From: Minisyncoccota bacterium
Lineage (GTDB): Bacteria; Patescibacteriota; Minisyncoccia; Phycocordibacterales; UBA9973
Assembly: GCA_043718505.1 (NCBI GenBank)
Contig: JAYSVN010000005.1
Coordinates: forward strand, 14 to 64,013
Direction of reading: 5' to 3'
DNA: 64,000 nucleotides
The notes beneath the pieces are model-generated. The model was not told the origin of the DNA. It did no database searches and worked only from the letters and a program-made list of their open reading frames with translations. Positions 36,127-64,000 of the stretch are shown piece after piece. The translations under genes and the position numbers were made by a program. Every line of letters begins with the position of its first letter. Positions within the stretch are counted from its first letter, which is position 1.

Positions 36127-36127
36127 T

Positions 36128-45065: not shown

Positions 45066-45485
45066 ATGGCTAGAATTAACCAATTAGTTAAAAAAGGCAG
45101 AAAGACCCAGACGCGTAAAACGCGATCGGTTGCACTCATGCGTGGTTTTAACGCAATTAAGAATAAGCCAATTTTTTATCCGTCTCCATTTAAGCGCGGT
45201 GTTTGCACAAAGGTGACAACCGTTACCCCAAAGAAGCCTAACTCTGCTCTCCGAAAGATTGCCCGTGTCCGCCTTACTAATGGTATGGAAGTAACAGCAT
45301 ACATTCCGGGTGAAGGTCACAATTTACAGGAACACTCTGTTGTTATTTTGCGCGGCGGTCGCGTCAAAGACCTAATCGGTGTTCGTTACCACATTGTTCG
45401 CGGATTGCTTGATGCTACTGGTGTTGAAAAGCGCCGTCAGTCACGCTCACTCTACGGTGCGAAGCGCCCGAAAGCTGCTAAGTAG
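45066..45485 (+). CDS. rpsL: 30S ribosomal protein S12 with ~12-aa insertion near the N-terminus
   Basis: ...[71 protein letters not shown]... Extra segment [16 protein letters not shown] precedes KRGVC. Confidence 0.95.
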
Positions 45486-45538
45486 CAAATTAAAATAATA
45501 TTAATTCTTCCTAAAAACTTTTTAATCACAAAAATCAT

Positions 45539-46006
45539 ATGCGACGCAAAGTCAAAAATCGAAATATCGCCCAGCCGGACATTACTTTCAACAATGCCCG
45601 TCTTGGAAAGTTCATCAATTGCATCATGTGGGATGGCAAGAAAGAAACTGCCCGCAAGGTAGTTTATTCTGCGCTTGAAATCGTGAAGGAAAAAACAAAG
45701 CTTGATCCGATTGAAGTTTTTGATACTGCTATTCGCAACGCTGGCCCTGCTATGGAAGTTCGCTCTCGCCGTATCGGTGGAGCTAACTATCAGGTGCCTC
45801 GCGAAGTTCGTGAAGAAAGAAAGCGCGCCCTCGCTATGCGCTGGATAATCAATGCCGCTCGTTCTGGCAAAGGCCGCCCGATGGGGGAGAAGCTCGCTGA
45901 CGAACTGATTGCTGCTTCAAAAAATGAAGGTGTGGCAATCAAGAAGCGCGACGATACTCACAAGATGGCTGAATCAAACAAGGCTTTTGCGCACTTTGCG
46001 TGGTAA
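45539..46006 (+). CDS. rpsG: 30S ribosomal protein S7
   Basis: ...KFINCIMWDGKKETARKVVYSALEIV..., GGANYQVPREVREERKRALAMRWII... Confidence 0.95.
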   Translation: MRRKVKNRNIAQPDITFNNARLGKFINCIMWDGKKETARKVVYSALEIVKEKTKLDPIEVFDTAIRNAGPAMEVRSRRIGGANYQVPREVREERKRALAMRWIINAARSGKGRPMGEKLADELIAASKNEGVAIKKRDDTHKMAESNKAFAHFAW

Positions 46007-46041
46007 TAACCGGTTAATTTCTCAAAATACAAACAATACAA

Positions 46042-46066
46042 AAATTCCCGAAAGGGGATTTTTGGT
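46042..46066 (+). terminator. Rho-independent terminator after rpsG
   Basis: ATTCCC-GAAA-GGGGAT hairpin followed by TTTTGG. Confidence 0.5.
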
Positions 46067-46111
46067 TTGACTATTATCGCGCACAGACCTAGACTTAAGA
46101 AAAACTAAACT

Positions 46112-46651
46112 ATGTTCACTTACAACTCTCTTGTCGAAGCCTGCAAAAATCTCGATCTCAATCCAGAAATAAAAGGCACCAATATCTATGTCATAAAAGG
46201 CCGTCCATGCGAAGCATTCGAAAAGCCGTTTGATTTGCACACCATTAAGTTTCCACAGAAAGAACTAACAGAAGTTGAAAGTATCGGTACACTTATCTTT
46301 AACCTTGCTTCGCAGAAAAAGTTCCCTTCATTCTATGATCTAGGTTCAGCTGCCGGCAAAGAAGAAAGTCGGAGAGATAATGCAATTGAAAAATTTCTGC
46401 CGGCTGCAATTGAAGCACAGCAATTTTGGCTCAAAAAGGGTCTGAAGATATGCAAATGCAAAGAAAAAGAATTCATCTTAGACTACGGTACTATCTATGA
46501 AGTTGACCCAAGCTTCCAGGAAGGTATGAATAAAATGAATAAGCGAATGGAAGAAGTCCATCGAGATTTCATTAGAAAAAATGCCGCTTCAGAAATTAGT
46601 GCAAGAAATATTCATGTCGGCGGCAATGCCAGATCCGAACCCTCTTATTGA
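46112..46651 (+). CDS. Hypothetical protein (179 aa) inserted between rpsG and fusA
   Basis: ORF with its own terminator. No recognised domain. Confidence 0.5.
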   Translation: MFTYNSLVEACKNLDLNPEIKGTNIYVIKGRPCEAFEKPFDLHTIKFPQKELTEVESIGTLIFNLASQKKFPSFYDLGSAAGKEESRRDNAIEKFLPAAIEAQQFWLKKGLKICKCKEKEFILDYGTIYEVDPSFQEGMNKMNKRMEEVHRDFIRKNAASEISARNIHVGGNARSEPSY

Positions 46652-46664
46652 GAGGGTTTTTTAT
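46638..46664 (+). terminator. Rho-independent terminator
   Basis: CCCTCTT-ATTG-AGAGGG hairpin followed by TTTTTTATTT. Confidence 0.7.
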
Positions 46665-46675
46665 TTACACTGTTA

Positions 46676-46705
46676 TTTGCACAAACTACCCAAATGCCGT
46701 ATAGT
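46676..46705 (+). promoter_or_regulatory. Candidate promoter TTTGCA-18-TATAGT upstream of fusA
   Basis: Read directly; ~70 nt upstream of the fusA ATG. Confidence 0.4.
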
Positions 46706-46774: not shown

Positions 46775-48916
46775 ATGGAAAGAGATTACCCATTGGAGAA
46801 AGTAAGAAATTTCGGAATTATTGCCCACATCGATGCGGGCAAAACGACTACGTCTGAACGTGTGCTTTATTACACCGGTGTGTCACACAAAATCGGTGAA
46901 GTGCATGACGGCGAAACAACCACAGACTGGATGGAGCAGGAACGCGAACGCGGCATCACGATTACAGCTGCGGCTATTACCTGTTTCTGGAATCCTACCT
47001 ACGATCCGGACGACAAAAATAAAAAGCATCGCTTCAACATCATCGATACTCCCGGACACATCGACTTCACCGTAGAAGTGAAGCGGTCACTTCGCGTGCT
47101 CGACGGCGCTGTTGTCGTCTTTGACGGCGTAGCCGGCGTAGAACCGCAGTCAGAAACTAACTGGCGCTATGCTGACGAAGCTAAAGTTCCTCGTATTTGT
47201 TTCATCAATAAACTTGATCGAACAGGCGCGTCTTTTGAGCATTCATATAAAACTATTCTTGAACGCCTAAATAAAAATGCTATTCGCATGCAGCTCCCGA
47301 TCGGTCTTGAAGAAAAACATGAAGGCGTTGTTGATCTTCTGACAAAGAAGTCATATCGTTTCGAAGGTGACATGGGCAGTAAGATTGTCGAAGGTGAGAT
47401 TCCTGAAGACATGAAAGCCGATGCCGAGAAATATCGCGCTGAACTCATCGAAGCAATTGTCCAGCACGACGACGCTGTCATGAGTGATTACCTCGAAGGT
47501 AAAGAACCTGATCTCGCTACGCTCAAGAAACTCATGCGCAAAGCGGTTATCAACAATGCTATTTTCCCGGTCTTTGCCGGTTCTGCTCTCAAGAATAAAG
47601 GTGTTCAGCTCGTTCTCGATGCTGTTGTTGATTACCTGCCATCTCCGCTCGATATTCCGCCAATCGCCGGTATCAATCCTGACACTGACGTTGAAGAATT
47701 TCGTCATGCAGATGACAGTGAACCTTTCTCCGCGCTTGCTTTCAAAGTCGCAACTGATCCATTCGTTGGTCAGCTGATTTTCTTCCGTGTCTATTCCGGT
47801 ACGCTCACAGCCGGTTCATATATTTACAATCCTCGCACTCGTAACAAAGAACGCATCGGTCGTATCTTGCGCATGCATGCCAACGATCGTGAAGAAGTGA
47901 AGAAAGTTTTCGCCGGTGAAATCGCAGCTGCAGTTGGTCTCAAAGATACAAAAACATCTGACACGCTTTGCGATGAAAATCAGCCGATTATGCTCGAGCG
48001 TATCGTTTTCCCTGAACCAGTTATCTCAATGCGTATTGAACCAAAAACAAAAGCTGACCAGGAAAAAATGGGTCTGGCGCTTTCTCGTCTAGCTGATGAA
48101 GATCCGACATTCCGCGTTTCAACTGATGCTGAAACTAACGAAACAATTATTGCCGGTATGGGTGAACTCCACCTCGATATTATTGTTGATCGTATGAAGC
48201 GTGAATTTACAGTTGAAGCAAATACCGGCAAGCCGCAAGTTGCATACCGCGAAACAATTACCGGTGACTCGCAGACAGAAGGTAAGTACATCAAACAGAC
48301 TGGCGGACGCGGTAACTACGGTCACGTCAAAATTAAAGTTAAGCCGATGGATATGTCGGTCGACGCTGAAGATTTGCCAAAAAATACCAAGCGTTCTGAA
48401 GGTTTTGAATTCATCAACAATATTAAAGGCGGCTCTATCCCTCAGGAATACATTGCGCCTTGTGAAAAAGGTTTTCGAGAAGGACTCGATAGAGGTGTTT
48501 TGGCCGGATTTAAAATGGTCAATGTCTCCGTTGATCTTTGGGACGGTTCGTACCACGAAGTTGACTCAAACGAAATGGCTTTTAAAATCGCCGCTTCAAT
48601 GGCAATTCAGGATGCTTGTAAGATGGCCAAGCCTGTTATTCTCGAGCCGATGATGAAAGTTGAAGTTATTACTCCTGACAAATTCATGGGTGATGTTACC
48701 GGCTCTCTTTCTGCTAAACGCGGCATTATCGAAGGTATGGAAACTCGCGGCCTCAACCAGGTTGTCAAAGCAGTTGTGCCTCTTTCTGAAATGTTCGGCT
48801 ACATGACAAGCTTGCGCTCGATGACTGAAGGTCGCGCCGGCTTCAACATGGAATTTCTCCGATATGATATCGTGCCGAAAAACGTGGCAGATGAAATTAT
48901 TGCGGCGAGGAAGTAA
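46775..48916 (+). CDS. fusA: Elongation factor G
   Basis: [24 protein letters not shown]..., [14 protein letters not shown]..., [12 protein letters not shown], domains II-V collinear. Confidence 0.97.
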
Positions 48917-48945
48917 TGTTTTTAAGTAATTTCTGATAAAATCAC

Positions 48946-49425
48946 ATGAATACCATTAAACCAATTATTACGCTCATCCTCCTCGTTGCCGTTGGAGCTG
49001 TTGCTTACTTTGTTATGCCGAAGAACAATGACATGCCCGGTACAATTGCGGCTCAGCATCTGAATGCAGATGTGTATCCGCTTTTCCCTGGTATTAAATG
49101 GGGAAGTGAAATGACAGGCACTGACACGTATTTCAAAATTACTGGTTACAAAGTTGATTCTAGTGTTATGACAGAGAAAGACATACCGACAACACTTTCG
49201 CCATTTCAAACATACTATGATGAAAAAATGAAAAAAGCTGGTTGGACTATGGATATAAATATGGCAGCTGACGGCCCGGCGAGTTCAAGCTGGGGCTACA
49301 CAAAAGGAAATGAAGTTGCTATGTTTAGTTACCATTTCGAATCATTAGATCCTAAACCCGACGAAATTTTTTCCTGCCCGTGTGAAGGAACATTCTCGAT
49401 AATGACTGGAACCAGAGATCAATAG
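48946..49425 (+). CDS. Membrane-anchored hypothetical protein (159 aa)
   Basis: N-terminal TM IITLILLVAVGAVAYFV. Terminator downstream. Confidence 0.5.
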   Translation: MNTIKPIITLILLVAVGAVAYFVMPKNNDMPGTIAAQHLNADVYPLFPGIKWGSEMTGTDTYFKITGYKVDSSVMTEKDIPTTLSPFQTYYDEKMKKAGWTMDINMAADGPASSSWGYTKGNEVAMFSYHFESLDPKPDEIFSCPCEGTFSIMTGTRDQ

Positions 49426-49430
49426 TTAAA

Positions 49431-49470
49431 AACACCGTCCAATAGGAAAACTGGGCGGTGTTTTCTTTTG
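49431..49470 (+). terminator. Rho-independent terminator
   Basis: CACCGTCCA-N11-TGGGCGGTG stem followed by TTTTCTTTTG. Confidence 0.6.
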
Positions 49471-50393: not shown

Positions 50394-53300
50394 ATGATTA
50401 CAAGGGCATTTTTCAATATTCAAAAAAAGACCGCAATAACGCTGCTTATTGCTTTTTTCGCTTTCGGCGAGATGACAGCGGGGTTGCTTATTGCGCCAAT
50501 GGAGGCCAAGGCTGCTTTGCCGCCTGGTTTTGCAACTGAAACAATTGCCGGCGGACTCAATTTTCCAACATCGATGGCTTTCACTCCGGACGGCCGAATT
50601 TTCGTTGGTGAAAAATCTGGATCGATTAGAGTAATAAAAAATGGCGCACTTTTGCCGACACTACTCGTTCAGCTGACTGATATTAATACCTACGCTGACC
50701 GCGGCCTTATCGGTATTGCTGTCGACCCAAACTTTGCGACCAATAAATACATTTACCTTTCTTATACGTATGAAAATACACCGGGTGCAAATCTGACTGC
50801 TGCCAAAACTGCGCGCATCGTTCGCATGACGGTTTCGGGCGACACAGCAAGCGAAGCAACAAAAGTTGTCATCGTTGGAACTGTCGGGGGAAGTGCAGCT
50901 ACTCCATCGTGCAAAAATTATCCTGCCGGTACTGACTGTATTGCGTCTGATTCTTCGTCGCATAGTGCCGGCGGACTTCGCTTTGGTCCTGATGGCAAAC
51001 TGTACGCTACGCTCGGTGATGGTGCGCGTTTTGATGTCGCTGATCCTGATGCACTTCGTGCCCAAAATCTTGACAGCCTCAACGGCAAAATGTTGCGTAT
51101 CAATACTGACGGTACTGCTCCAATCGACAACCCATTTTACAATGGTAATCCAAATGCTAACCGTTCAAAAGTGTATGCATATGGTGTGCGAAATATGTTC
51201 CGCTTTTCTTTCCGTCCAGCAACCGGTGCAATTTATGGCGGAGATGTCGGCTGGGATACATGGGAAGAAATAAACATCATCACGCCTGGCGGCAACTACG
51301 GCTGGCCATGTCGCGAAGGTAATAACCCAACAAGCTACGGTTGTACAGCTACCGGCCACGTCAATCCTGTCTATACATATGTTCATGATCCTGGTTCAGG
51401 CGGTTCAATTACAGCTGGTGTTTTTCCAACAGGTTCTGTCTATCCGGCAAGTTACAATAATAAAATGTTTTTCGGCGACTTCGCCATGAACTGGATGAAG
51501 TTTTTGGAAATGAGCCCGACTGACACATTTGTCGGCACGAGTGATCTCATGCTCTCAAGCGATAATCCAAACGGTCCGGTTGATTACGCTGTCGGTCCGG
51601 ACGGTTACATTTATTTTATTTCAATTTACACCGGTGACATTCGTCGCTTTGTTTACACACTCGGCAACAGACAACCAATCGCGCAAATCGCAGCTACTCC
51701 TACCTCAGGCAGTTTGCCGCTTTCAGTAAGTTTTTCTTCGGCTGGCTCGAGTGATCCTGACGGTAATCCACTTTCATACCTTTGGAATTTTGGAAATGGC
51801 ACGCCGACAAGTAGTGATGCTAATCCAGTGCATGAATATACAGTCGCTGGTACGTACATTGCAACACTTGAAGTGAGCGATGGCCTCGGCGGCACGAATC
51901 TCAAGAGCATCACTATATTTGCCGGAAACAGAGCTCCGACACCAACTATTTCGTCACCGACAAATGGTGCTCTCTATTTCCCAGGGCAAGTCTTTACCGT
52001 TTCGGGAAGTGCAACTGATCCGGAAAACGGCACACTTTCCGGCGCATCACTTACTTGGCGTGCTATTCTCCACCATAATACGCATACGCATGTTTTGCAG
52101 ACAGCGTCAGGCAATTCATTCCAATTCACGGCGCCTGATCACGGTGATCCGGCTGTCTACACGGAACTTGAACTCACTGCAACTGACTCCGGTGGTGTGA
52201 CGGCAAAAACCAGTGTCAATATGTATCTCAACAACGGTATTGCGCCTGGAAGTAACCTCGTCCAAAATCCTTCATTTGAAACTGCGAATCCTGCTTTTCC
52301 AAACTTGCCGCAAAGTTGGAATAACTATAAGTGGGGAACACACACTGCTGCTTTTGCTTATCCTGTTGCCGGACAGGATGGTGCGCGAGCTGCACAAGTC
52401 ACGATATCTGGTTACGTGAGTGGCGACTCAAAGTGGGGACATGATCCGGCGTACGTCGCTGAAAATACAAATTACACTTTTTCTGATTACTACAAATCAA
52501 CAACCACAACCTACCTCGTAGCGGCTGTTAGTTTTGCCAACGACACGATGCAGTACACCCAGCTCGCTACACTTCCGGCCGCCGCAAACTGGACGCAGGC
52601 CAATGCCACTTTCCAGACACCAGTTGGCACGCGTACGCTTGCGATTTATCACTTGATCAATAGCAATGGCTCACTCACCGTCGACAATTACTCCTTGATT
52701 GGTCCGGGGGGAACTACACCACCAGTTACGGGTACAAACCTTGTCGTCAATCATTCGCTTGAAAATGCTAATACTGCCGGTACGTTGCCTTTGAATTGGG
52801 CAAGTAATAAATGGGGAACACACACTGCTGCTTTTGCCTATCCGGTTGCCGGACAAGAAGGCGCCAAGGCTGCCAAAATTACGGTCTCAGGCTACACAAG
52901 CGGGGATGCCAAGTGGTTCTTTAACGATGTCACTGTAACGCCGGGCACAACGTATACTTTTTCTGATTACTATCAATCAACCGCCGCAACTCGTTTAGTT
53001 GCTCGATTTACGACGAGTGCAAATACTATCTCATACCTTGAGCTCGGCGCGTCACTTCCAATCAACGCCGGTTGGTCACAAGCCACACGATCAATTACGA
53101 TTCCGGCTGGCGTGACCAAGCTCACTGTTTTCCATGTGATCGCGGCCAACGGTTCACTGACTGTCGACAATTATTTCCTCTCTGATGGCACGACTCCTCC
53201 AGTTGGCGGCACGAATTTAATTGCCAATGGCTTCATGGAAAATGCTAATGCCGGCAACACTGCACCACTTAACTGGACGCCAACAACAAGCGGCACTGGT

Positions 53301-55013
53301 TTTACAACTACACATACGTATCCAACAACAGGGCAAGACGGTGGCAAAGCCGCCCGCGTCGTGATTTCCGGTATGCCATCAGGTGCTGACGGCAATGCAC
53401 GCTGGCAATTTGATGAAGTGCCGATCCAAACTGGCACTGAATATACCTACGAAGGCTACTACAAAGGAAGCACAATTTCTGACATCATCGGCCGCTACAC
53501 ATTTGCTGATGGCAGCACGCATTTCTTCGGACTGAAGAAAGAAATTCCAGCGGCGACGAACTGGACTTTTGTCACAGGGAAATTTGTCGGGCCGGTCAAT
53601 GTCACAAGCATTACGCTCATGCACTTGATCAGTACAAATGCGTCACTTGAAATCGATAATGCCAAACTCTATGTCAGCGGCACTGGTACGCCAAATGAAA
53701 TAATTCCACCAACACAAAGCTTTACCAATCCGCTCGATGGTCAAACTGTTTCCGGCACGATTACGCTTACCTCTGATGTTCAGGATAATTCCGGTCAGGC
53801 TTGGATTTTCTACGCAGTTGACGGTACGCCCCTCGGACCTGAACAACCTGCGCCGTACAGTCAGCAATGGGATTCAACGACTGTTGCAAACGGAACACAC
53901 ACGCTCAAAGTCACATCGCGTGATGCTGTTGGCAATAACAATCGTCAAATTATTACTGTGAATGTAAATAATACTGTTACGCCGCCAACTGGCAATAATC
54001 TCATTCTCAATCCATCACTTGAAACCGCGAACGGTGCTTTGCCGCAAAACTGGGCAAGCAATAAGTGGGGGACAAATACTGCGACATTTAATTATCCTGT
54101 CGCTGGACAAGAAGGAGCCAAAGCTGCTGAAGTTCAAATGACGGCGTACACGAGCGGCGATGCCAAGTGGATCTTCAACAATGTCGCCGTAACTCCGGGC
54201 AATCAATACACATTCCAAAATTACTACAAAGCTACAGTGCCAACACAGCTCGTTATTCGCTACACGAATGGTAGCGGTGTTGCGAGTTACGTCGGATTTA
54301 CAAGTGTTCCGGCAGCGGCAAACTGGCAAACAGCTAACATGACATTTACACCGCCAGCTGGTACTGCTTCGGTGAGTGTCTTCCATATTATTTCAGCAGT
54401 TGGAACACTCACGGTAGATAACTACTCTCTTGTCGGTCCTGGCACACCCCCTCCGACCGATGTCTGTCCAAATATCGCCGGCAATCAAGCAACAGTTCCA
54501 GCTGGAATGGTCATAGATATTTCAGGCAACTGTGTTACACCTCCACCAAGCGGCGGGACAAACCTTGTCCTCAATCCATCACTTGAAACCGCCGCTGGTT
54601 CGCTTCCGGCTAACTGGGCGCACGATTTCTGGGGGACGCATACTCGTATCTTTACTTATCCAGTTGCCGGCAACGATGGCGCCAAAGCAGGAAAAGTTGA
54701 AATTACCGGGTACACTGACGGTGATGCTAAGTGGGCATTTGACCATGTCACTGTAACTCCGGGTACGACGTACACATTCTCTGATCACTACCAATCAAAT
54801 GTACCGACAACCGTTATCGCCGAATTCAAAACCGCCAGCAACGTTTACAGTTACCAGCCAATCGGCGGTACTGTGCCAGCCTCGGCTGCAGCGTGGAATA
54901 CATTTACCGGCAATGTCACCGTACCAGCCGGCATCCAAAGCATGACTATTTTCCATCTTCTCCAGTCTGTGGGCTGGCTGACGATTGATCAGGCGAGTGT
55001 TGTGGCGCAGTAA
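50394..55013 (+). CDS. Giant (1539 aa) secreted multidomain surface protein: GSDH-like beta-propeller, PKD domain, five tandem CBM_4_9-like modules, one Ig-like domain
   Basis: Signal peptide. ...GFATETIAGGLNFPTSMAFTPDGRIFVGEKSGSIRVI... (soluble quinoprotein glucose/sorbosone dehydrogenase-like propeller). PKD motif SDPDGNPLSYLWNFGNGT...HEYTVAGTYIATLEVSDGLGG. Repeated NLV.NPS.E(T)A......P..W....W(G)THTAAFAYPVAGQ(D/E)GA.AA......Y.SGD.KW modules. Confidence 0.7.
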   Translation: MITRAFFNIQKKTAITLLIAFFAFGEMTAGLLIAPMEAKAALPPGFATETIAGGLNFPTSMAFTPDGRIFVGEKSGSIRVIKNGALLPTLLVQLTDINTYADRGLIGIAVDPNFATNKYIYLSYTYENTPGANLTAAKTARIVRMTVSGDTASEATKVVIVGTVGGSAATPSCKNYPAGTDCIASDSSSHSAGGLRFGPDGKLYATLGDGARFDVADPDALRAQNLDSLNGKMLRINTDGTAPIDNPFYNGNPNANRSKVYAYGVRNMFRFSFRPATGAIYGGDVGWDTWEEINIITPGGNYGWPCREGNNPTSYGCTATGHVNPVYTYVHDPGSGGSITAGVFPTGSVYPASYNNKMFFGDFAMNWMKFLEMSPTDTFVGTSDLMLSSDNPNGPVDYAVGPDGYIYFISIYTGDIRRFVYTLGNRQPIAQIAATPTSGSLPLSVSFSSAGSSDPDGNPLSYLWNFGNGTPTSSDANPVHEYTVAGTYIATLEVSDGLGGTNLKSITIFAGNRAPTPTISSPTNGALYFPGQVFTVSGSATDPENGTLSGASLTWRAILHHNTHTHVLQTASGNSFQFTAPDHGDPAVYTELELTATDSGGVTAKTSVNMYLNNGIAPGSNLVQNPSFETANPAFPNLPQSWNNYKWGTHTAAFAYPVAGQDGARAAQVTISGYVSGDSKWGHDPAYVAENTNYTFSDYYKSTTTTYLVAAVSFANDTMQYTQLATLPAAANWTQANATFQTPVGTRTLAIYHLINSNGSLTVDNYSLIGPGGTTPPVTGTNLVVNHSLENANTAGTLPLNWASNKWGTHTAAFAYPVAGQEGAKAAKITVSGYTSGDAKWFFNDVTVTPGTTYTFSDYYQSTAATRLVARFTTSANTISYLELGASLPINAGWSQATRSITIPAGVTKLTVFHVIAANGSLTVDNYFLSDGTTPPVGGTNLIANGFMENANAGNTAPLNWTPTTSGTGFTTTHTYPTTGQDGGKAARVVISGMPSGADGNARWQFDEVPIQTGTEYTYEGYYKGSTISDIIGRYTFADGSTHFFGLKKEIPAATNWTFVTGKFVGPVNVTSITLMHLISTNASLEIDNAKLYVSGTGTPNEIIPPTQSFTNPLDGQTVSGTITLTSDVQDNSGQAWIFYAVDGTPLGPEQPAPYSQQWDSTTVANGTHTLKVTSRDAVGNNNRQIITVNVNNTVTPPTGNNLILNPSLETANGALPQNWASNKWGTNTATFNYPVAGQEGAKAAEVQMTAYTSGDAKWIFNNVAVTPGNQYTFQNYYKATVPTQLVIRYTNGSGVASYVGFTSVPAAANWQTANMTFTPPAGTASVSVFHIISAVGTLTVDNYSLVGPGTPPPTDVCPNIAGNQATVPAGMVIDISGNCVTPPPSGGTNLVLNPSLETAAGSLPANWAHDFWGTHTRIFTYPVAGNDGAKAGKVEITGYTDGDAKWAFDHVTVTPGTTYTFSDHYQSNVPTTVIAEFKTASNVYSYQPIGGTVPASAAAWNTFTGNVTVPAGIQSMTIFHLLQSVGWLTIDQASVVAQ
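52250..55010 (+). repeat. DNA-level tandem duplication of ~480-560-nt modules encoding the five CBM-like repeats
   Basis: Near-identical stretches, e.g. AAGTGGGGAACACACACTGCTGCTTTTGCTTATCCTGTTGCCGGACAGGATGG (52327) versus AAATGGGGAACACACACTGCTGCTTTTGCCTATCCGGTTGCCGGACAAGAAGG (52808). Module starts ~52255, 52736, 53213, 53996, 54560. Confidence 0.7.
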
Positions 55014-55078: not shown

Positions 55079-56854
55079 ATGAAAAAACTACAGAATCTGG
55101 AGATGAAGCTTGCTGTCCGTACACCGTTACTTATTACACTTGGCATAACACTTATTATCGGTATCGGTTATTTTACAATGCAAAATAATTTTCCTACCAA
55201 CCAAAAAGCGACGATAGTAGATGTAAAACCACAAATCGTAGATTCAACCACAAATAGCTCTTCAACCACTGGTAAGGGACAGATATACTTGATGGGCGGT
55301 GTGACTACGAATGGAGTATTTCTTAATAACGTTGTTTCTTCCAGTGATGGTATTACATGGAATCAAATTTTACCAAATGCACCATGGAGTAGGAGGCAAG
55401 GACACAGCACAGTATTCTTTAACGGTAAAATATTTTTAGCTGGAGGTTCTTCTAACACTGGAAATTGCTTCAATGATGTATGGTCATCACCCGACGGTAT
55501 TACATGGAGTCAAAATACTGCCAACGCTGCATGGTCTCCGAGACAGGGCACAGCTTTGGTTGTACTCAATAATAAGTTGTGGGTGTACGGTGGAATTGAG
55601 TGCAGCGGGAATATGGTCAATGATGTTTGGTCATCTCCAGACGGCATCACGTGGACACAAGTAAACTCTTCCGCACCATGGGGATCACGCAGGTGGTTTG
55701 GGTATACGGTATTTCAAAATAAACTATGGTTGATCGCTGGATGGCCAAATAATAATAACCCGAGTGATGTTTGGTCATCACCTGATGGAATTACCTGGAC
55801 TCTGGTGAATCCTGCTGCACCCTGGTTTAGTCGAGCATATTTTAAAGCATTTACCTTTGATAACAAATTATGGATCACTGGCGGTACAAGTATTGTTGTT
55901 AACGGTAATTACCTTGGCGATGTTTGGTCATCCCCAGACGGTATTACCTGGACGCAGGCTACTAATAATGGACCCTCTTTAAACAGAGCAGCTTTTGATA
56001 CTTTTGTATTTAATAACAAAATGTGGTTAGCGGGCGGTTTAATGTCCGGTGCTCTTAATGATGTTTGGTCTTCACTAAATGGTGTTAGTTGGACACAAGC
56101 GACAAATAATTTAACAAATGGTGGAGTGGGAACCCATTCTATAGTTGTTACGTCTTCTACTGGCGTTCCTAGTCAGCAGCCAACCGTCACCACCATTTCC
56201 GCTTCTCCATTTACAGCTGTCAACGCAACACTAACCGGCAAAGTAAATCCAAACGGGACACAAACTGTCGGCTATTTTAAATACGGTAAAACAACTGCCA
56301 TGACTTCAACTACATCCGGCACATCAATGGGCGTAGGAACTGCGGCAGTAGGTTTCTCAAAATATATCAGTGGCCTTGTTCCAAACACTCTCTACTATTA
56401 TCAAGCATGCGCAACGTATACTCCGGGACCAATTTGTGGAGCAACACGAACATTCACAACTTTAAATTCAGTTCCCGACCTCAAAATTATTTCACTCACT
56501 TTTGATCAAACCACTACCCAACAAAGCGTAACTGCGGCACGGGTAAGGTACACATTTACTCTCAAGAATGACTTAAATGCGCCAACCGTTCTGCCTGTCG
56601 GCACAAAGTTTACTCTCTATTACAAGCCTGGCACAACATATATTCCAATAGGAGAGACTGCTGTAATTAATACTCCTACACCCCTTGCTGCTTTGGCTAC
56701 ACTTACCTTTACAAATAGCACCTATCTTTCACCAAACGCGAGAGCTACACTAGGTACTTTCCCAGCAAAAATTTCGGCTGATACTACGAATCTTGTTATT
56801 GAGACGAATGAACTTAATAATGATTTAGTGCAGAATTTGGTGATAGTGCCGTAG
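55079..56854 (+). CDS. Membrane-anchored secreted protein with ~7 BNR/Asp-box repeats (predicted beta-propeller) and an Ig/FN3-like C-terminus
   Basis: Repeated VWSSPDGITW(S/T)Q (S-x-D-G-x-TW Asp-box) every ~50 aa, with Kelch-like spacing (..APWS.R.GH...F..K.....G). Confidence 0.6.
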   Translation: MKKLQNLEMKLAVRTPLLITLGITLIIGIGYFTMQNNFPTNQKATIVDVKPQIVDSTTNSSSTTGKGQIYLMGGVTTNGVFLNNVVSSSDGITWNQILPNAPWSRRQGHSTVFFNGKIFLAGGSSNTGNCFNDVWSSPDGITWSQNTANAAWSPRQGTALVVLNNKLWVYGGIECSGNMVNDVWSSPDGITWTQVNSSAPWGSRRWFGYTVFQNKLWLIAGWPNNNNPSDVWSSPDGITWTLVNPAAPWFSRAYFKAFTFDNKLWITGGTSIVVNGNYLGDVWSSPDGITWTQATNNGPSLNRAAFDTFVFNNKMWLAGGLMSGALNDVWSSLNGVSWTQATNNLTNGGVGTHSIVVTSSTGVPSQQPTVTTISASPFTAVNATLTGKVNPNGTQTVGYFKYGKTTAMTSTTSGTSMGVGTAAVGFSKYISGLVPNTLYYYQACATYTPGPICGATRTFTTLNSVPDLKIISLTFDQTTTQQSVTAARVRYTFTLKNDLNAPTVLPVGTKFTLYYKPGTTYIPIGETAVINTPTPLAALATLTFTNSTYLSPNARATLGTFPAKISADTTNLVIETNELNNDLVQNLVIVP

Positions 56855-56962
56855 CAGAGAGCTTGCAGAAAATCAGAACAACGTTTACGATGTATATATT
56901 GATGAGGGTGCGGATCGCAAAGTCTGTCCAGAAATGGGCGGATTTTGTTTTTTATTTACTCA

Positions 56963-57679: not shown

Positions 57680-57891
57680 ATGCTCCGTTTATATCATAAA
57701 GGCCCTTTGATTAATAGGTAAAATAGTGTATTTGACATCCCTCAGCGTTCTGCTAATATGAGCTTAATCGCAATCGCGGTTTTTTGTTTGCCGAACTGGC
57801 TGACGGGGAATAAACCCTTACAAATTAGTCGTATTTTTATAATTAATATATGTTCCGTATCCACTGGGTAAAGGAACCACTATACATTCGT

Positions 57892-59088
57892 ATGGCAACA
57901 GAAGCATTTAAGAGAGACAAGCCTCACGTAAACGTAGGCACAATCGGTCACGTTGACCACGGTAAAACAACCCTTACCGCGGCTATTTTGCATGTTCTGC
58001 AATTGAACGGTAACGTAGTCAAAATGAAGGGTGTCGGCGAAATCGACTCCGCTCCGGAAGAAAAGGCTCGTGGTATTACCATTAACCTTTCTCACAACGA
58101 GTACGAGACAGCAGCTCGTCACTACGCGCACATTGATGCCCCAGGTCACGCTGACTACATCAAGAACATGATTACAGGTGCCGCTCAAATGGACGGTGCT
58201 ATTCTCGTGGTTGCCGCAACTGACGGCGCTATGCCACAGACTCGAGAACACATCTTGCTCGCAAAGCAGGTTGGTGTGCCTCGTATCATCGTTTTCCTCA
58301 ATAAGGTAGACATGGTTGACGACAAAGACATGGTTGACCTCGTCGAAGAAGAAATCCGCGAAATCCTTACAAAGCAAGGTTTTGACGGCGCAAATACCCC
58401 TGTTATCAAGGGTTCAGGCCTCAAGGCACTCGAAGCAAAGGACATTAATGATCCTTGGGCTCAGAAGATTCTTGAGCTTACAAACGCTCTTGATACGTAC
58501 ATTCCAGTTCCAGAACGCGACACTTCAAAGCCATTCCTCATGCCTATTGAAGACATCTTCTCAATTGAAGGCCGTGGCACTGTTGTCACTGGTAAGATCG
58601 AACGCGGCATCGTCAAAGTTGGCGAAGACGTGGAAATTATCGGAATCAAAGACACCCAGAAAACAGTTGTCACCGGTATTGAAATGTTCAACAAGTCTCT
58701 CCAGGAAGGTATGGCTGGCGACAACGCTGGTATCCTTATCCGCGGTATAGCAAAAGATGCTATCACTCGCGGTCAGGTTCTTGCTAAGCCGGGTTCTGTT
58801 ACTCCTCACTCTGAATTTGAATCTGAAGTCTACATCTTGAAAAAGGAAGAAGGCGGTCGCCACACTCCTTTCATGCAAGGGTACAAGCCTCAGTTCTACA
58901 TCCGTACAACAGACGTAACTGGTGAAGTTACTCTGCCAGAAGGTAAAGAAATGGTCATGCCGGGCGATACCGTGACCTTTAAAGTCAAGCTTATTACACC
59001 GGTCGCTCTTGAAGACCAGACTCGTTTCGCTATTCGTGAAGGCGGTAAGACCGTCGGCGCTGGTGTCGTAACTAAGGTCATTAAGTAG
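57892..59088 (+). CDS. tuf: Elongation factor Tu
   Basis: [23 protein letters not shown]..., [26 protein letters not shown]..., NKVDMV. Start trimmed to [12 protein letters not shown]. Confidence 0.97.
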
Positions 59089-59098
59089 TTTGCCTAAC

Positions 59099-59476
59099 AT
59101 GGCTACAAAAACATCGACAATTCCAAAGAAGAGAGCAAAGAAGGGAGATGCAGCAGCCGCTGAAACAGCAGTTTCAATTCTCCGCATTCGCGTCCGTGCA
59201 TACGAAAGCAAGGTACTTGATGCATCTGTAAAACAGATCATTGATACAGCTACTCGCTACGACGCCAAAGTTCTCGGACCAGTGCCGCTTCCGACAGAAA
59301 TTAAGAAGTACACGGTGAACCGATCTTCTTTCATCTACAAAAATACTCGTGAGCAATTTGAAATGCGCACGCATAAGCGCCTCATTGATATCGTCAATCC
59401 TTCTGCGAAGACGATTGAAGCACTTACCAACCTCTCATTGCCATCCGGCGTCGACATCGACGTTAAGATGCTTTAA
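59099..59476 (+). CDS. rpsJ: 30S ribosomal protein S10 (N-terminally extended ~25 aa)
   Basis: ...IRVRAYESKVLDASVKQIIDTATRYDAKVLGPVPLPTEIKKYTVNRSSFIYKNTREQFEMRTHKRLIDIV... Confidence 0.93.
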   Translation: MATKTSTIPKKRAKKGDAAAAETAVSILRIRVRAYESKVLDASVKQIIDTATRYDAKVLGPVPLPTEIKKYTVNRSSFIYKNTREQFEMRTHKRLIDIVNPSAKTIEALTNLSLPSGVDIDVKML

Positions 59477-59580
59477 AAAGTAATAGGCAATTATCTGTAG
59501 AGCATTTGTAGAGCGGGCATGCAAAACATGCATAGCGTATTCTTCTTGGTTCGATTTCTTTCTGAAGCCATCAAAACTAT

Positions 59581-60213
59581 ATGAAATTTATATTAGGTAA
59601 AAAACAGCATATGACTCAATTCTTCGCCCCAGGCGGGAAGGTTTTTCCTGCAACTGTGGTGAAAGTTATGCCCGGTGTTGTAACGCAGGTAAAGTCAAAA
59701 GAAGCTGACGGCTACGTCGCGGCTCAAGTTGGCTTTGGTGAGAAAAAGGCTGATCGAATTTCGAAGTCAGCCAAAGGTCACTTCAAAGAGCTCGGTAATT
59801 TCTCAGATCTCCGCGAATTCCGCTTTGGAACTACAGCTAGTTCTGGCGCGGGCGCAAGCGATGTTCCGGCTGTCGGCTCAACAATTACACTCGAAGATTT
59901 CACCGAAGGTGACGTCGTTCGTGTCTCAGGTACGACAAAAGGTAAGGGTTTCCAGGGTGTCGTCAAACGACATGGCTTCCACGGTGGTCCTCGCTCACAC
60001 GGCCAGAAACACTCTGAGCGTGAAGCTGGATCTATCGGCGGCGGTTTGCGTACGCACGTGCCAAAAGGTATGCGTATGGCAGGACGCATGGGTAGTGACA
60101 AAGTCACAGTTCGCAATCTCAAAATTCTTCACATTGATAAAGATGAGAATCTCATCATCATTTCAGGTGCAATTCCAGGTCGACGCGGAACTCTTGTTGA
60201 GATTACCGGCTAG
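59581..60213 (+). CDS. rplC: 50S ribosomal protein L3
   Basis: MKFILGKKQHMTQFF..., VRVSGTTKGKGFQGVVKRHGFHGGPRSHG... Confidence 0.95.
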   Translation: MKFILGKKQHMTQFFAPGGKVFPATVVKVMPGVVTQVKSKEADGYVAAQVGFGEKKADRISKSAKGHFKELGNFSDLREFRFGTTASSGAGASDVPAVGSTITLEDFTEGDVVRVSGTTKGKGFQGVVKRHGFHGGPRSHGQKHSEREAGSIGGGLRTHVPKGMRMAGRMGSDKVTVRNLKILHIDKDENLIIISGAIPGRRGTLVEITG

Positions 60214-60258
60214 ATTAGACGCGAAAATTTTTAGTAAAATTTTCGCCCAATAAAAGTT

Positions 60259-60960
60259 ATGGAAGCAAAAATATACAACATAAAAGGTGAATCAGCCGGA
60301 ACAATTAAACTCCCGGAGTCTGTTTTTGGTGCGAAAGTATCATACGATGCAATCCACTCAACCCTCGTCATGCTTCGCGGTAATCAGCGCGCTGGTACAG
60401 CTCAGGTCAAAGACCGTGGCGCTGTTCGCGGCGGAGGCAAGAAACCATGGAGACAGAAGGGAACAGGCCGCGCTCGTCACGGCTCAACCCGCAGTCCGAT
60501 CTGGGTAGGTGGCGGTACAACTCACGGTCCGCTCACAGCCAAAAACTATAATCGCAAGATTAACAAGAAGACTCTTACGTCTGTTTTGTTCGGTGTTCTC
60601 ACTGCAAAGGCTAAAGATAATGAAATTATTTTTGTCGACAGTATGTCGATGAGTGATTTCAGTACAAAGTCTGCAAAGACTGCGCTCGCAAATGTCGGCA
60701 AAGTTGTTGACGCACCACGCATTGCTAATGGAAAGAAGAAAGCTGTACTTGTATTGCTCGGTAGTAATGACAAGAAGACAGTAAAAAGTTTGAGTAATCT
60801 TCCGTCAGTTGAAGTTGAACAATGGAAAAATCTCAATGCTTTGATGGCTGCTTCATACAAGTACATTCTGATTTCTGAACCAAGTGCTGCAGTTGCTTTT
60901 CTTGAAGGCAAGAAGGCTAAAGCTCGCAAAAATGAAAAGCTAAGCGCGAAAGCTGCATAA
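60259..60960 (+). CDS. rplD: 50S ribosomal protein L4
   Basis: ...GGGKKPWRQKGTGRARHGSTRSPIWVGGGTTHGP... Confidence 0.95.
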   Translation: MEAKIYNIKGESAGTIKLPESVFGAKVSYDAIHSTLVMLRGNQRAGTAQVKDRGAVRGGGKKPWRQKGTGRARHGSTRSPIWVGGGTTHGPLTAKNYNRKINKKTLTSVLFGVLTAKAKDNEIIFVDSMSMSDFSTKSAKTALANVGKVVDAPRIANGKKKAVLVLLGSNDKKTVKSLSNLPSVEVEQWKNLNALMAASYKYILISEPSAAVAFLEGKKAKARKNEKLSAKAA

Positions 60961-60964
60961 TTGT

Positions 60965-61312
60965 ATGGCTACAAAAAAAACTACAACAAAAAAAGAAGTC
61001 AGCGCAGTCAGCACAAAAGTTGCTGCAGAAAAAACTGATAAGAAAGAAGTTTCTATTTTAGTGAAGCGCGTTACAGAAAAGTCAGGTTTGGCTTCTGCTA
61101 AACATGCCTACACTTTCCTCGTTCCTATGGATGCCAACAAGACTATGATCGTCGCAGCTTTCAAGAAAGAGTATAAGAAAACTCCGGTCAAAGTTTCAGT
61201 GCTTCGTATGCCAGGTAAGCCACTTTTCCGTGCCGGACGTCCGGCCTGGAAATCAGGTTACAAGAAAGCAGTCGTGACTTTAAAGAAGGATGATAAGATA
61301 GAATTCATGTAA
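60965..61312 (+). CDS. rplW: 50S ribosomal protein L23 (Lys-rich N-terminal extension)
   Basis: ...LVPMDANKTMIVAAFKKEYKKTPVKVSVLRMPGK... core with MATKKTTTKKEVSAVSTKVAAEKTDKK extension. Confidence 0.9.
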   Translation: MATKKTTTKKEVSAVSTKVAAEKTDKKEVSILVKRVTEKSGLASAKHAYTFLVPMDANKTMIVAAFKKEYKKTPVKVSVLRMPGKPLFRAGRPAWKSGYKKAVVTLKKDDKIEFM

Positions 61313-61343
61313 GACGCGCTTGTCGCAATGAATCATAAATAAT

Positions 61344-62192
61344 ATGAAAACATATAAACCAACAACTCCATCTCGCCGCAAAATGGTCACGATCGACTAT
61401 CGTAAGGTTTTGTCAGGCCACAAGCCAACAAAGTCACTGACTCATGGCCAGCAGCGTTCTGTCGGCCGCAACAGCCAGGGCCGCGTCACAACCCGCCACA
61501 AGGGCGGTGGTAACAAGCGCCTCTATCGTGAAGTCGACTTTAAATTCGACAAACGTGATATTTTGGCGCGCGTGACTTCTATCGAATACGATCCAAACCG
61601 CTCAGCATTCATCGGACTTTTGCAATACAAAGACGGTGAAAAGCGCTATGGTGTTTTGCCAAAAGGCGTTGTCGTCGGTGCGGAAATCATGACTTCAGAA
61701 AAAGCAGCCATTAAACCAGGCAACAGACTTCCACTCAAATTTATTCCTGTAGGAACTTTTATTTACAATATTGAAATCAAACCTGAAGGTGGCGCCAAGC
61801 TCGTTCGTTCAGCTGGTACTTTTGCTCAGCTCATCGCTAACGATGCCGGTTACGCTCAGATCAAAATGCCTTCAACTGAAGTTCGCAAAATTCCTGAACT
61901 CGCCTGGGCTTCTGTCGGTACAGTTTCAAACGATGAATACCACCTCATCAACTATGGTAAGGCTGGCCGCTCACGCTGGAAGGGTATTCGCCCGACTGTT
62001 CGTGGTTCTGCCATGAATCCGGTTGACCACCCACTCGGTGGTGGTGAAGGCGCACAGGGTGCCGGCATGAAGCGCGTCAAGAACGTTTACGGTAAAGGTA
62101 TTCGCGGCAAGAAAACTCGCAAGCCAAAGAAATATTCAAACTTCCTCATGCTCACTCGCCGCAAGACCGGCAAGAAGAGAAAGGGACAGTAA
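61344..62192 (+). CDS. rplB: 50S ribosomal protein L2
   Basis: ...GRNSQGRVTTRHKGGG..., ...RSAGTFAQLIAND..., ...VRGSAMNPVDHPLGGGEG... Confidence 0.97.
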   Translation: MKTYKPTTPSRRKMVTIDYRKVLSGHKPTKSLTHGQQRSVGRNSQGRVTTRHKGGGNKRLYREVDFKFDKRDILARVTSIEYDPNRSAFIGLLQYKDGEKRYGVLPKGVVVGAEIMTSEKAAIKPGNRLPLKFIPVGTFIYNIEIKPEGGAKLVRSAGTFAQLIANDAGYAQIKMPSTEVRKIPELAWASVGTVSNDEYHLINYGKAGRSRWKGIRPTVRGSAMNPVDHPLGGGEGAQGAGMKRVKNVYGKGIRGKKTRKPKKYSNFLMLTRRKTGKKRKGQ

Positions 62193-62204
62193 ACTCAATC
62201 TAAT

Positions 62205-62236
62205 GCAAAAACCACCTCATAAAGGTGGTTTTTGCA
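62205..62236 (+). terminator. Rho-independent terminator immediately after rplB
   Basis: CCACCTC-ATAA-AGGTGG hairpin followed by TTTTTGCATTT. Confidence 0.6.
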
Positions 62237-62288
62237 TTTATGGGGTGGTGTGGTAATGTAGGCGAAACCAACTCTTAAACAAAAAAAC

Positions 62289-63203
62289 ATGCAAAGAAAC
62301 TTCATGCAATTACTTGCTGCCATGTGGGCGCAAAACAAATTCGTCTGTGTCGGACTCGACAGCGAATTAGCTAAAATCCCGAAACATATTAAAGACAGAC
62401 ACCTTGAATCTTCACCTGTGTCGCGTCCAATTCGTGATTTCAATATGGAAATCATTGATACCACAAAAGATATTGCCGCGGCGTACAAGCCAAATTTGGC
62501 ATTCTATTTGGGCCTTGGAGAATTTGGCCTTAAAGCTCTTGAAAATACATGTGCGTACATACATCTGACGGCACCTGACGTACCAATTATTCTGGATGCA
62601 AAGTTCGGAGACATCGGCAATACCAATGAGCACTATGCGAGATTTACCTTTGAGGTCATGAAAGCCGATGCGGTTACTGTCCATAACTATATGGGCAGCG
62701 TAGGGATGAAGCCTTTTCTTGACTACAAAGACAAAGGTATCATTGTCCTTTGTCGAACATCAAATGCGGGGTCAGGTGAATTTCAGGAAGTTCCTGTACC
62801 ATCTCGTCTTCAGGAAAGGTACGGTGACTCTTTCTTTGTGTTGGTTGGCAACACAGTTTCAAAAGTCTGGAATGAAAACAATAACTGTATGTTGGTCATG
62901 GGCGGTACATATGCTGAAGACTTTAAAAAAGTTCGTGCTGCTGCACCTCAAATCCCTTTCCTTATACCAGGTATCGGTGCGCAGGGCGGTGATCTTGAAA
63001 ATGCGGTTCGTAACAGCATGACGGAAGATGGTAACGGTTTTATTGTCAACTCGTCTCGTGGTATTATTTTCGCTTCAAACGGTGAGGATTATGCTACGCG
63101 TGCTCGGGAAGAAACAATAAAGCTTAACGATCAAATCAATGAGGTTCGTAAAAAAGTCTTAGCCGAAAGACATCAAAGCAGCCTGCTAAAATATAATAAG
63201 TAG
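62289..63203 (+). CDS. pyrF: Orotidine 5'-phosphate decarboxylase (long/type-2 form)
   Basis: ILDAKFGDIGNT, ...VHNYMG..., LIPGIGAQGG signature motifs. Confidence 0.85.
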   Translation: MQRNFMQLLAAMWAQNKFVCVGLDSELAKIPKHIKDRHLESSPVSRPIRDFNMEIIDTTKDIAAAYKPNLAFYLGLGEFGLKALENTCAYIHLTAPDVPIILDAKFGDIGNTNEHYARFTFEVMKADAVTVHNYMGSVGMKPFLDYKDKGIIVLCRTSNAGSGEFQEVPVPSRLQERYGDSFFVLVGNTVSKVWNENNNCMLVMGGTYAEDFKKVRAAAPQIPFLIPGIGAQGGDLENAVRNSMTEDGNGFIVNSSRGIIFASNGEDYATRAREETIKLNDQINEVRKKVLAERHQSSLLKYNK

Positions 63204-63258
63204 TGATAGGAGGCAAATTAAAAAAGGAGAACACATAATGTTCTCCTTTTATTTTTTA

Positions 63259-64000
63259 CTAAGCAGTTTGTTTGGCTGCATTCATGGCCTGCATAAGCTT
63301 TGGCCAATCATCTTTTGGCTTCCAAACAACATTATTATTAGCAATATCTTCCACCACAGCTTCTTCGTGCTGCTCGTATTCAGGAAACGGTTTTTCGACG
63401 AGAGCAATAATTGGAAACCTCCTTACCCTGTCTTCCTTATCCTTGTAGTTAAAATCATCCGTGAATTTTGGAGAGCGATTGAGAATACTGCAAATACCTT
63501 TTACTGTAGCGCCAAGGCCTTCAATAAGGTCTATTGTCTTCCTTGTTGTTGAAAAATTATTAAGGACATCTTCAACAATGATGACTTTGTCGCCCTCCGC
63601 AATAGTATGTCTGCCAAATTGCAGCTCAGAAATTTCACGTCCGGCACTTGATGCAACCCGGACAATTTTCTTTTCAGCACAAGCATAACGAGCACCGAAT
63701 TCACGTCCATTGTATGCGAGAAACTGGGCAATGCTGATACCGCCCATTTGTGGTCCGACAAAAACGGTACCTTCGTCTACCATATCTGCCAATTTCTTGA
63801 GAAGTTTTTTGGCATAGTGGTCAATGACAACTGGGTATTCTTCAGCCTTGGCAAAATTAGCATAGACATCGCCGACATATTGTTTGTACGTGCCTGCACC
63901 AAAATTTGAAAGGTAACTACCAGCGTAGCCGACAAGCGGACCCAGCCTTTTACCAGTTTTCTGGTCTTTTGGACATTCATAGTAGCCACCTAGAGCATGG
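63259..64000 (-). CDS. pyrE: Type I phosphoribosyltransferase, probably orotate phosphoribosyltransferase (5' end beyond window)
   Basis: ...VFVGPQMGGISIAQFLAY..., PRPP-binding VIIVEDVLNNFSTTRKTI. Reading frame continues open to the window edge (listed TTG-start ORF 63259..63792 is a truncation). Convergent with pyrF. Confidence 0.65.
   Translation of the reverse strand, partial: HALGGYYECPKDQKTGKRLGPLVGYAGSYLSNFGAGTYKQYVGDVYANFAKAEEYPVVIDHYAKKLLKKLADMVDEGTVFVGPQMGGISIAQFLAYNGREFGARYACAEKKIVRVASSAGREISELQFGRHTIAEGDKVIIVEDVLNNFSTTRKTIDLIEGLGATVKGICSILNRSPKFTDDFNYKDKEDRVRRFPIIALVEKPFPEYEQHEEAVVEDIANNNVVWKPKDDWPKLMQAMNAAKQTA

Follow-up and report, generated by a model that had tools for sequence, protein, structure and literature searches.

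Genes inserted between putative mini-operons of the str/S10 ribosomal-protein cluster in a Minisyncoccota bacterium and its relatives

Introduction

Unrelated gene sets (tusDCB, bfd-bfr, ilv-leu and nrdHEF) have been found inserted into an otherwise collinear translation-gene cluster. Three of these four insertions lie between operons (str/S10 or rpoBC/str), while nrdHEF is located inside the rpoBC operon, between rplL and rsmC, and the new gene order that results is often unstable (PMC8046335; PMC6735719). Here we analyse an interrupted str/S10 ribosomal-protein cluster in a 64,000-nt stretch of DNA from a Minisyncoccota bacterium (contig JAYSVN010000005.1, GenBank assembly GCA_043718505.1), hereafter the window, to whose whole length all coordinates refer. 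The window carries the same genes as the str and S10 operons of Escherichia coli and Bacillus subtilis, in the same order and orientation, rpsL-rpsG-fusA-tuf-rpsJ-rplC-rplD-rplW-rplB. Unlike those operons, the series is not contiguous: terminator-like hairpins follow rpsG and rplB, fusA and tuf lie 8.9 kb apart, and rpoBC is not found upstream. The gene order is canonical and merely interrupted; the arrangement is normal for Paceibacterota, and is neither a misassembly nor a unique rearrangement. Very probably, the interruptions reflect insertion at pre-existing boundaries between mini-operons, which serve as hot spots throughout the lineage.

The inserted genes resemble those of the described cases in displaying no sign of long-distance transfer. 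The described cases, on the other hand, are rare and clade-specific, whereas the sites reported here are occupied across a large share of a phylum-level lineage, and by different genes in nearly every genome. In contrast to the tusDCB, bfd-bfr and ilv-leu insertions, these sites are also internal to the operons as they are known from E. coli, to str (the rpsG-fusA and fusA-tuf junctions) and to S10 (rpsJ-rplC and rplB-rpsS). A search of an incomplete literature library for interrupted ribosomal-protein clusters in the Candidate Phyla Radiation (CPR), Parcubacteria or Patescibacteria found no description of them.

Results

Canonical order with three interruptions

Protein families were assigned with Pfam and NCBIfam, with PHROG as a supplement. 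All genes named in a preliminary description of this DNA, made from the letters alone, were recovered in their places by Pfam and NCBIfam (Table 1). The series consists of rpsL-rpsG, an orphan 179-aa gene, fusA, 8.9 kb with five genes, tuf-rpsJ-rplC-rplD-rplW-rplB, and finally pyrF with a convergent phosphoribosyltransferase gene. The gaps between successive cluster genes, from rpsL to rplB, measure 54, 769, 8934, 2, 105, 46, 5 and 32 nt. All four members of the canonical str set (rpsL, rpsG, fusA, tuf) are present, with order and strand preserved. The set is not contiguous: six genes lie in its two large gaps (769 bp and 8,934 bp), and hairpins occur within the series. The genes from rpsJ to rplB, separated by the last four of the listed gaps, are contiguous and ordered as in the canonical S10 operon.

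The gene rpsS does not directly follow rplB, which is succeeded by a hairpin and then by pyrF. No rpsS, rplV, rpsC or rplP was found anywhere in the 64-kb window. Only 1.8 kb lie between rplB and the end of the window, and the source contig (64,088 bp) stops within 88 bp past it. The orphan, SDR-like and Kelch proteins are each on record from one NCBI contig of this length, of which the window makes up nearly all. The missing rpsS-rplV-rpsC genes are therefore an end-of-sequence effect, and the preliminary claim that pyrimidine genes stand there instead of rpsS-rplV-rpsC is not established. By analogy with the closest relatives described below, the cluster most likely continues with rpsS a few kb further downstream, in sequence that this contig does not cover.

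Upstream of rpsL, the place of rpoBC is occupied in the window by an M50 peptidase gene, which is also a conserved neighbour of rpsL in at least 11 related loci. Because the peptidase gene precedes rpsL both in the window and in these loci, the rpoBC-str linkage of other bacteria is likewise absent from this lineage.

Table 1. Genes, hairpins and promoter-like site of the interrupted cluster, in window coordinates
Feature	Position	Strand	Evidence and remarks
M50 peptidase gene	44363-44983	+	Directly upstream of rpsL
rpsL	45066-45485	+	PF00164, 1.4e-36; first putative transcription unit, with rpsG
rpsG	45539-46006	+	PF00177, 5.6e-59; first putative transcription unit
Putative terminator hairpin after rpsG	46039-46064	+	Stretch 46005-46075 folds at -18.0 kcal/mol, z -3.5; U-run after stem
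Orphan 179-aa gene	46112-46651	+	Inserted at rpsG-fusA; without family
Putative terminator hairpin ending orphan gene	46637-46659	+	-13.1 kcal/mol, z -4.2
fusA	46775-48916	+	Five EF-G domains (Pfam)
N-terminally anchored protein, 159 aa	48946-49425	+	N-terminal hydrophobic segment
Putative terminator hairpin after 159-aa gene	49429-49464	+	13-bp stem, then UUUUCUUUU; region -26.1 kcal/mol, z -3.7
SDR-like (short-chain dehydrogenase/reductase-like) protein, 247 aa	49515-50258	+	Pfam
Secreted 1539-aa protein	50394-55013	+	Signal peptide; GSDH, PKD and Big_7 domains (Pfam)
Kelch-repeat protein, 591 aa, N-terminally anchored	55079-56854	+	Pfam; absent from L001
Putative terminator hairpin between convergent Kelch and membrane-protein genes	56917-56948	+	14-pair stem; -19.7 kcal/mol, z -4.5
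Multi-pass membrane protein, 238 aa	56963-57679	-	Weak DUF975 and BPSS1780-family matches; four hydrophobic segments; absent from L001
tuf promoter-like site	57732-57759	+	TTGACA-16-TG-TAATAT; 10/12 matches, extended -10 TG
tuf	57850-59088	+	Pfam; N-terminal sequence points to probable true start at 57892
rpsJ	ends by 59476	+	Pfam; N-terminal sequence points to probable start at 59099; tight unit with tuf (57850-59476)
rplC, rplD, rplW, rplB	59581-62192 (rplB 61344-62192)	+	Pfam; contiguous unit
Putative terminator hairpin after rplB	62202-62238	+	16-bp perfect inverted repeat; -22.9 kcal/mol, z -6.7
pyrF (type 2 orotidine monophosphate decarboxylase)	62289-63203	+	TIGR02127, 216.3 bits against cut-off 110.6; residues 7-272 of 304
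Putative bidirectional terminator, pyrF and convergent gene	63222-63250	both	-15.1 kcal/mol, z -6.8
Type I phosphoribosyltransferase	63259-64000	-	PF00156, 32.3 bits against 26.3; 5' end outside window, frame open to 63999

Interruptions at the same junctions in related genomes

Relatives were sought by a protein scan with rplB, taking one genome per GTDB species; the loci found are numbered L001, L002 and so on. The 67 best rplB loci all belong to metagenome-assembled genomes (MAGs) of Paceibacterota/Patescibacteria, labelled Nomurabacteria, Paceibacterota, Minisyncoccia, Giovannonibacteria and similar. The closest rplB sequences are those of L001 (90% identity) and L002 (88%), and a neighbour-joining tree of rplC, rplD and rplB places the window as sister to these two. 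The source organism is an uncultivated member of the Paceibacterota (Patescibacteria/CPR, Parcubacteria). A metagenome scan with rplB added 80 further loci, none closer than 71% identity.

The L001 locus (DAORIR010000001.1, Candidatus Paceibacterota MAG AMR_MDS_5572) represents a different species and was assembled independently. It shows about 71-84% DNA identity to the window, and is collinear with it at three places: through the 1539-aa gene, around the tuf promoter, and where rplB meets pyrF. The rplB-pyrF junction lies within one uninterrupted blastn alignment to L001, window positions 59573-62788, which runs from rplC into pyrF. The order in L001 is that of the window—SDR-like gene, 1510-aa homologue, tuf, rpsJ, rplC, rplD, rplW, rplB, pyrF—and the likeness includes the SDR-like gene, the protein of about 1500 aa with GSDH and PKD domains, the tuf promoter, and the position of pyrF directly after rplB. 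Past rplB, L001 continues with pyrF (+), pyrE (-), pyrD (-) and dgkA (+), after which rpsS, rplV, rpsC and rplP follow, with rpsS starting 3.5 kb past rplB on the same strand. In L002, dgkA alone separates rplB from rpsS, pyr genes are absent, and the rpsS-rplV-rpsC-rplP series resumes 0.7 kb past rplB, again on the same strand. The inserted genes thus already differ inside the small clade to which the window belongs. A methyltransferase-like gene in L001 takes the place of the Kelch and membrane-protein genes of the window, and the L001 gene convergent to pyrF is a canonical pyrE, with pyrD and dgkA behind it, in the place of the divergent transferase of the window.

The positions of 13 cluster genes were determined by tblastn in 160 loci, and the length of each junction was taken from them. 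The core sample comprises 126 loci whose rplB shares at least 56% identity with that of the window, and a gap exceeding 300 bp was counted as an interruption. Such gaps were found at fusA-tuf in 39 of 50 loci, at rplB-rpsS in 54 of 84, and at rpsG-fusA in 14 of 31; the rpsJ-rplC junction is interrupted in 14/84 loci, rplC-rplD in 4/91 and tuf-rpsJ in a single locus of 73. None were seen at rplD-rplW (0/97) or rplW-rplB (0/105), nor at rpsL-rpsG, rpsS-rplV, rplV-rpsC or rpsC-rplP. Dereplication leaves the counts essentially the same (53/83 for rplB-rpsS). The three breaks of the window are the three most often occupied junctions, and the window fits the pattern of the lineage, being open only at hot-spot junctions and tight at rpsL-rpsG, tuf-rpsJ, rplD-rplW and rplW-rplB. 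The preliminary description had proposed that synteny with related genomes be compared, an order ancestral to the lineage being the result that would speak against a rearrangement of this particular genome. The comparison largely gave this result for the interrupted architecture, which is normal for the lineage at all three junctions, though not for the particular genes inserted there.

The gap between rplB and rpsS reaches up to 9.7 kb among related loci, and every related locus extending far enough resumes with rpsS on the same strand. In more distant loci, including those of Bacilli, Clostridia and Acidobacteriota, the median of this gap is 0. The basal branches of the neighbour-joining tree also have a tight rplB-rpsS junction, with gaps of -19 to 85 nt, which suggests that the open junction is derived. 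The turnover of inserted genes is fast, since the near-identical loci L003 and L004 have rpsG-fusA gaps of 3508 and 222 bp, a difference of 3.3 kb.

Hairpins and promoters at the boundaries

Hairpins were located by a terminator scan, and their folding energy was compared with that of shuffled sequence, expressed as z. In the window, hairpins with U-runs were found at six places, far stronger than in shuffles (Table 1). The orphan gene between rpsG and fusA is flanked by two of them, as the preliminary description had stated in calling it terminator-bounded. A promoter-like TTGACT-17-TAGACT lies after the rpsG hairpin, at 46067-46095. The gap of 29 nt between fusA and the 159-aa gene contains no hairpin (-1.4 kcal/mol), and the two genes probably form one unit (46775-49425).

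In the related loci we searched for a hairpin followed by a T-run within the first 120 nt past each stop codon. Terminator-like hairpins of this kind follow rplB in 54/84 loci, against 9 in shuffles; they follow fusA in 31 of 50 loci, rpsG in 15 of 31 and rpsJ in 23 of 84, with other junctions yielding at most 4. The rplB hairpin is also seen in 13 of the 25 loci whose rplB-rpsS gap measures 40-300 nt and is too short for a gene. The window has hairpins of the lineage type after both rplB and rpsG. From this distribution we infer that the hairpins terminate transcription and that the boundaries predate the insertions.

The predicted tuf promoter is the sole promoter-like site with additional support, because it is conserved in L001: the 63-nt stretch that contains it (57729-57791) is 86% identical there, though the genes upstream differ. 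The same stretch, which also contains a small U-run hairpin (57766-57787) and has no Rfam match, may act as a conserved leader or attenuator for tuf-rpsJ. No ribosomal-protein leader or other RNA family was found by Rfam between 44.9 and 64.0 kb.

Inserted genes of the window

The gap between fusA and tuf was confirmed at 8,934 bp and holds five unrelated genes, including the one for the 1539-aa protein, as described earlier. It is the largest insert at this junction in the sample, the runner-up measuring 5.3 kb. The 1539-aa protein shares 70% identity with its collinear L001 counterpart of 1510 aa. All inserted genes share the codon usage found elsewhere in the window, with the annotated frame giving the best fit. 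The same holds for the orphan gene at rpsG-fusA, whose codon usage is host-like and whose frame is the best of six. The orphan 179-aa protein has no Pfam, NCBIfam or PHROG family, and among 5.8 billion protein clusters it matched only itself; a single-sequence AlphaFold model of it was unusable (pLDDT, the predicted local distance difference test, 39.6). The orphan gene is carried by SRR23617202, and a look-up of its protein led to a Logan contig of 1,032 bp.

Two of the genes between fusA and tuf contain internal repeats. The 1539-aa gene carries four copies of a module (52248-54808), neighbouring copies starting about 480-560 nt apart with the exception of one interval of 1254 nt. Five repeat copies in the Kelch gene (55475-56110), spaced at 141-153 nt, encode DVWSSPDGITWT-like motifs.

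The preliminary description had also placed a terminator, pyrF and a convergent pyrE after rplB. The hairpin and pyrF hold, and the L001 gene after rplB is 51% identical to the window pyrF. The pyrE label of the convergent gene is sub-threshold: it scores 54.7 bits for pyrE_Therm (TIGR01367), with a cut-off of 150.25, and 33 bits for pyrE (TIGR00336), with a cut-off of 106.8. The transferase is not an ortholog of the canonical L001 pyrE, and no match to it was found in the PDB by sequence. Its motif VIIVEDVLNNFST aligns with the phosphoribosyl pyrophosphate loop of L001 pyrE, and it is 22-27% identical to the transferases encoded between pyrD and pyrF in L007, L083, L086, L087, L092, L097 and L116. 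By these resemblances, the convergent gene probably encodes a divergent orotate phosphoribosyltransferase.

Inserted genes across the lineage

Open reading frames (ORFs) of at least 70 aa were counted in the occupied junctions. This gave 346 inserted ORFs, of which 238 are singletons without a relative among the others; 74% lie on the cluster strand. The recurrent families are pyrD/pyrE/pyrF, dgkA, RelE-like and HicAB pairs, and a pair of HlyD and ABC genes. At least 12 loci carry the pyr module, distributed over two junctions. Co-directional pyrD-pyrE-pyrF occurs at fusA-tuf in nine Nomurabacteria-like loci (L007, L013, L083, L086, L087, L092, L095, L097 and L116), and L001, L010 and the window have pyr genes at rplB-rpsS. 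Pyrimidine genes that follow rplB are thus a lineage-typical passenger in a clade-specific position. The dgkA gene (DAGK_prokar diacylglycerol/undecaprenol kinase) is present in 13 loci, exclusively at rplB-rpsS and always co-directional with the cluster. The HlyD and ABC pair occupies fusA-tuf in one genome and rplB-rpsS in another. RelE-like and HicAB toxin-antitoxin pairs, recognised by sequence pattern only and not by family scan, occur at all hot spots.

Individual loci display further variants. RelE/ParE-like genes with an upstream antitoxin, or HicB-HicA, were seen at four junctions: in L051 (7758-8291), L135 (1910-2409), L095 (8433-8882), L086 (2230-2487) and L032 (1000-1278). In L011 (4534-6105), pyrE and pyrF are apparently fused into a single gene of 523 aa between fusA and tuf. 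L010 (10893-16051) accommodates dgkA, pyrF, pyrE, an amidohydrolase gene (pyrC-like) and pyrD, all at rplB-rpsS.

Other features of the window

Several genes away from the cluster deserve mention. A homologue of Ro60 with TROVE and vWA domains (PF05731, PF25045) is encoded in this CPR genome at 22055-23698 (+). Bacterial Ro60 elsewhere is partnered by adjacent Y-RNA-like genes. The flanks of the homologue (20942-22055 and 23698-25215) are poor in ORFs, the 1.1 kb upstream containing none longer than 73 aa, and Rfam found no Y-RNA family beside the gene even at E up to 1. An arginase-family (agmatinase-like) gene directly precedes a deoxyhypusine-synthase homologue (17687-20078, +); to our knowledge, such a polyamine or hypusine-like pair is unusual in bacteria. 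Two large neighbouring ORFs of 821 aa and 464 aa (36107-40043, +) are without a Pfam family. A gene of the CCA-adding enzyme/poly(A) polymerase family adjoins tRNA-Arg (10849-12473). The window contains four tRNA genes; because all four are 72-73 nt long, CCA may not be encoded in them.

Discussion

The most probable explanation of the interrupted cluster is insertion at mini-operon boundaries that were there beforehand. Under this explanation, the universal str/S10 order, which is kept in the lineage, would be transcribed as several short units—rpsL-rpsG, fusA, tuf-rpsJ, rplC-rplD-rplW-rplB, rpsS-rplV-rpsC-rplP and so on—instead of two long operons. Each unit would be closed by an intrinsic terminator hairpin, and the next would presumably restart from its own promoter. 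A gene landing between units would spare the co-transcription of ribosomal genes; such boundaries would therefore tolerate insertions and could have become hot spots, at which unrelated genes may be gained, exchanged and lost quickly. In the window, three of these presumed hot spots would be occupied: one by the orphan gene, one by five genes mostly for envelope or secreted proteins, and one by a pyrimidine module after rplB.

Several observations weigh against this explanation. No convincing terminator was found after rpsJ in the window, where the model would place the end of a unit. Promoter-like hexamers are not enriched in the window, with 32 found against 31.5 expected from shuffles. Of the earlier claim that each break carries its own promoter and terminator signals, the terminators stand (z down to -6.7), while the promoters, that of tuf excepted, stay at the level of shuffles. 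The gene after pyrF differs between the window and L001, and the downstream content is not simply shared. The polarity of the rplB-rpsS junction is read from a quick neighbour-joining tree of three proteins. Finally, permissive sites alone leave the recurrence of pyrD, pyrE and pyrF at two junctions unexplained.

This last point is the strength of a different proposal, namely that the linkage itself is selected, since co-expression with strongly expressed, growth-rate-controlled translation genes would be advantageous and could, for instance, couple the supply of uridine monophosphate to ribosome synthesis. The recurrence of the pyr module in at least 12 loci, the confinement of the always co-directional dgkA to rplB-rpsS in 13 loci, and the 74% of inserted genes that run with the cluster are all in its favour. 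Most inserted ORFs (238/346) are nevertheless singletons, and the functions involved are unrelated. The toxin-antitoxin pairs among the inserts point to opportunistic insertion, and strong hairpins on either side insulate the pyrF gene of the window, whose partner lies on the opposite strand. We regard selected co-expression as an unlikely account of the interruptions, although it can coexist with insertion at mini-operon boundaries. A true fragmentation, in which the S10 series ends at rplB and rpsS-rplV-rpsC have moved to a distant locus, agrees with the lack of anything like rpsS, rplV, rpsC or rplP after rplB in the window, where the contig stops about 1.9 kb past that gene. It also agrees with the convergent transferase not being the ortholog of L001 pyrE, a sign that the sequence downstream was altered after the window and L001 separated. 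The sequence available past rplB (1.8 kb) is, however, shorter than the 3.5-kb insert of L001, and both closest relatives, together with every related locus of sufficient length, resume with rpsS on the same strand across gaps of up to 9.7 kb. Such a fragmentation is distinctly improbable.

The contig is derived from a metagenome, and a chimera joining pieces of the cluster to unrelated DNA, or an error of binning, has to be considered on that account. This is barely credible in view of the shared 1539-aa gene near tuf and the shared rplB-pyrF junction in L001, another species assembled elsewhere. In more than 50 independent assemblies, the same junctions hold insertions past which the cluster continues on the same strand, and the codon usage of the inserted genes is that of the rest of the window. 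An assembly artefact is already largely refuted, and the earlier reading of the locus as genuine rather than noise is borne out as far as the interruptions are concerned; it fails in calling them a rearrangement or fragmentation, as the order is canonical. Insertion of a mobile genomic island or a prophage remnant is a very poor candidate too, in spite of a G+C content of 0.46-0.49 at 50-54 kb, somewhat above the window average, and of the toxin-antitoxin pairs found at the same junctions in relatives. The inserted segments contain no integrase, transposase or phage family by Pfam and PHROG, and their codon usage and GC3 (G+C content at third codon positions) are host-like. Neither direct nor inverted repeats flank the inserts, as the repeat search found only the domain repeats within the 1539-aa and Kelch genes, and no tRNA lies nearby. 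With an integrase or transposase, flanking repeats and a tRNA target all not found between 45.9 and 64.0 kb, the mobile island was rejected.

Beyond the window, we offer a wider proposal tentatively, as one that may well prove wrong. In a large subclade of Paceibacterota, the str/S10 cluster may have been re-cut into approximately five mini-operons whose boundaries act as integration hot spots with fast turnover, with pyrD-pyrE-pyrF and dgkA repeatedly recruited to them, possibly tying the supply of nucleotides and lipids to ribosome production in symbionts with reduced genomes.

The block of 16 syntenic ribosomal proteins serves as the standard marker in CPR phylogeny and as an anchor in the binning of CPR genomes. 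That this block is routinely interrupted, at four fixed junctions and by as much as about 10 kb, matters for the extraction of markers from contigs and for operon prediction. The dozens of independent insertions at the same sites also provide a natural data set on what holds ribosomal-protein operons together, and on what follows when this constraint is relaxed.

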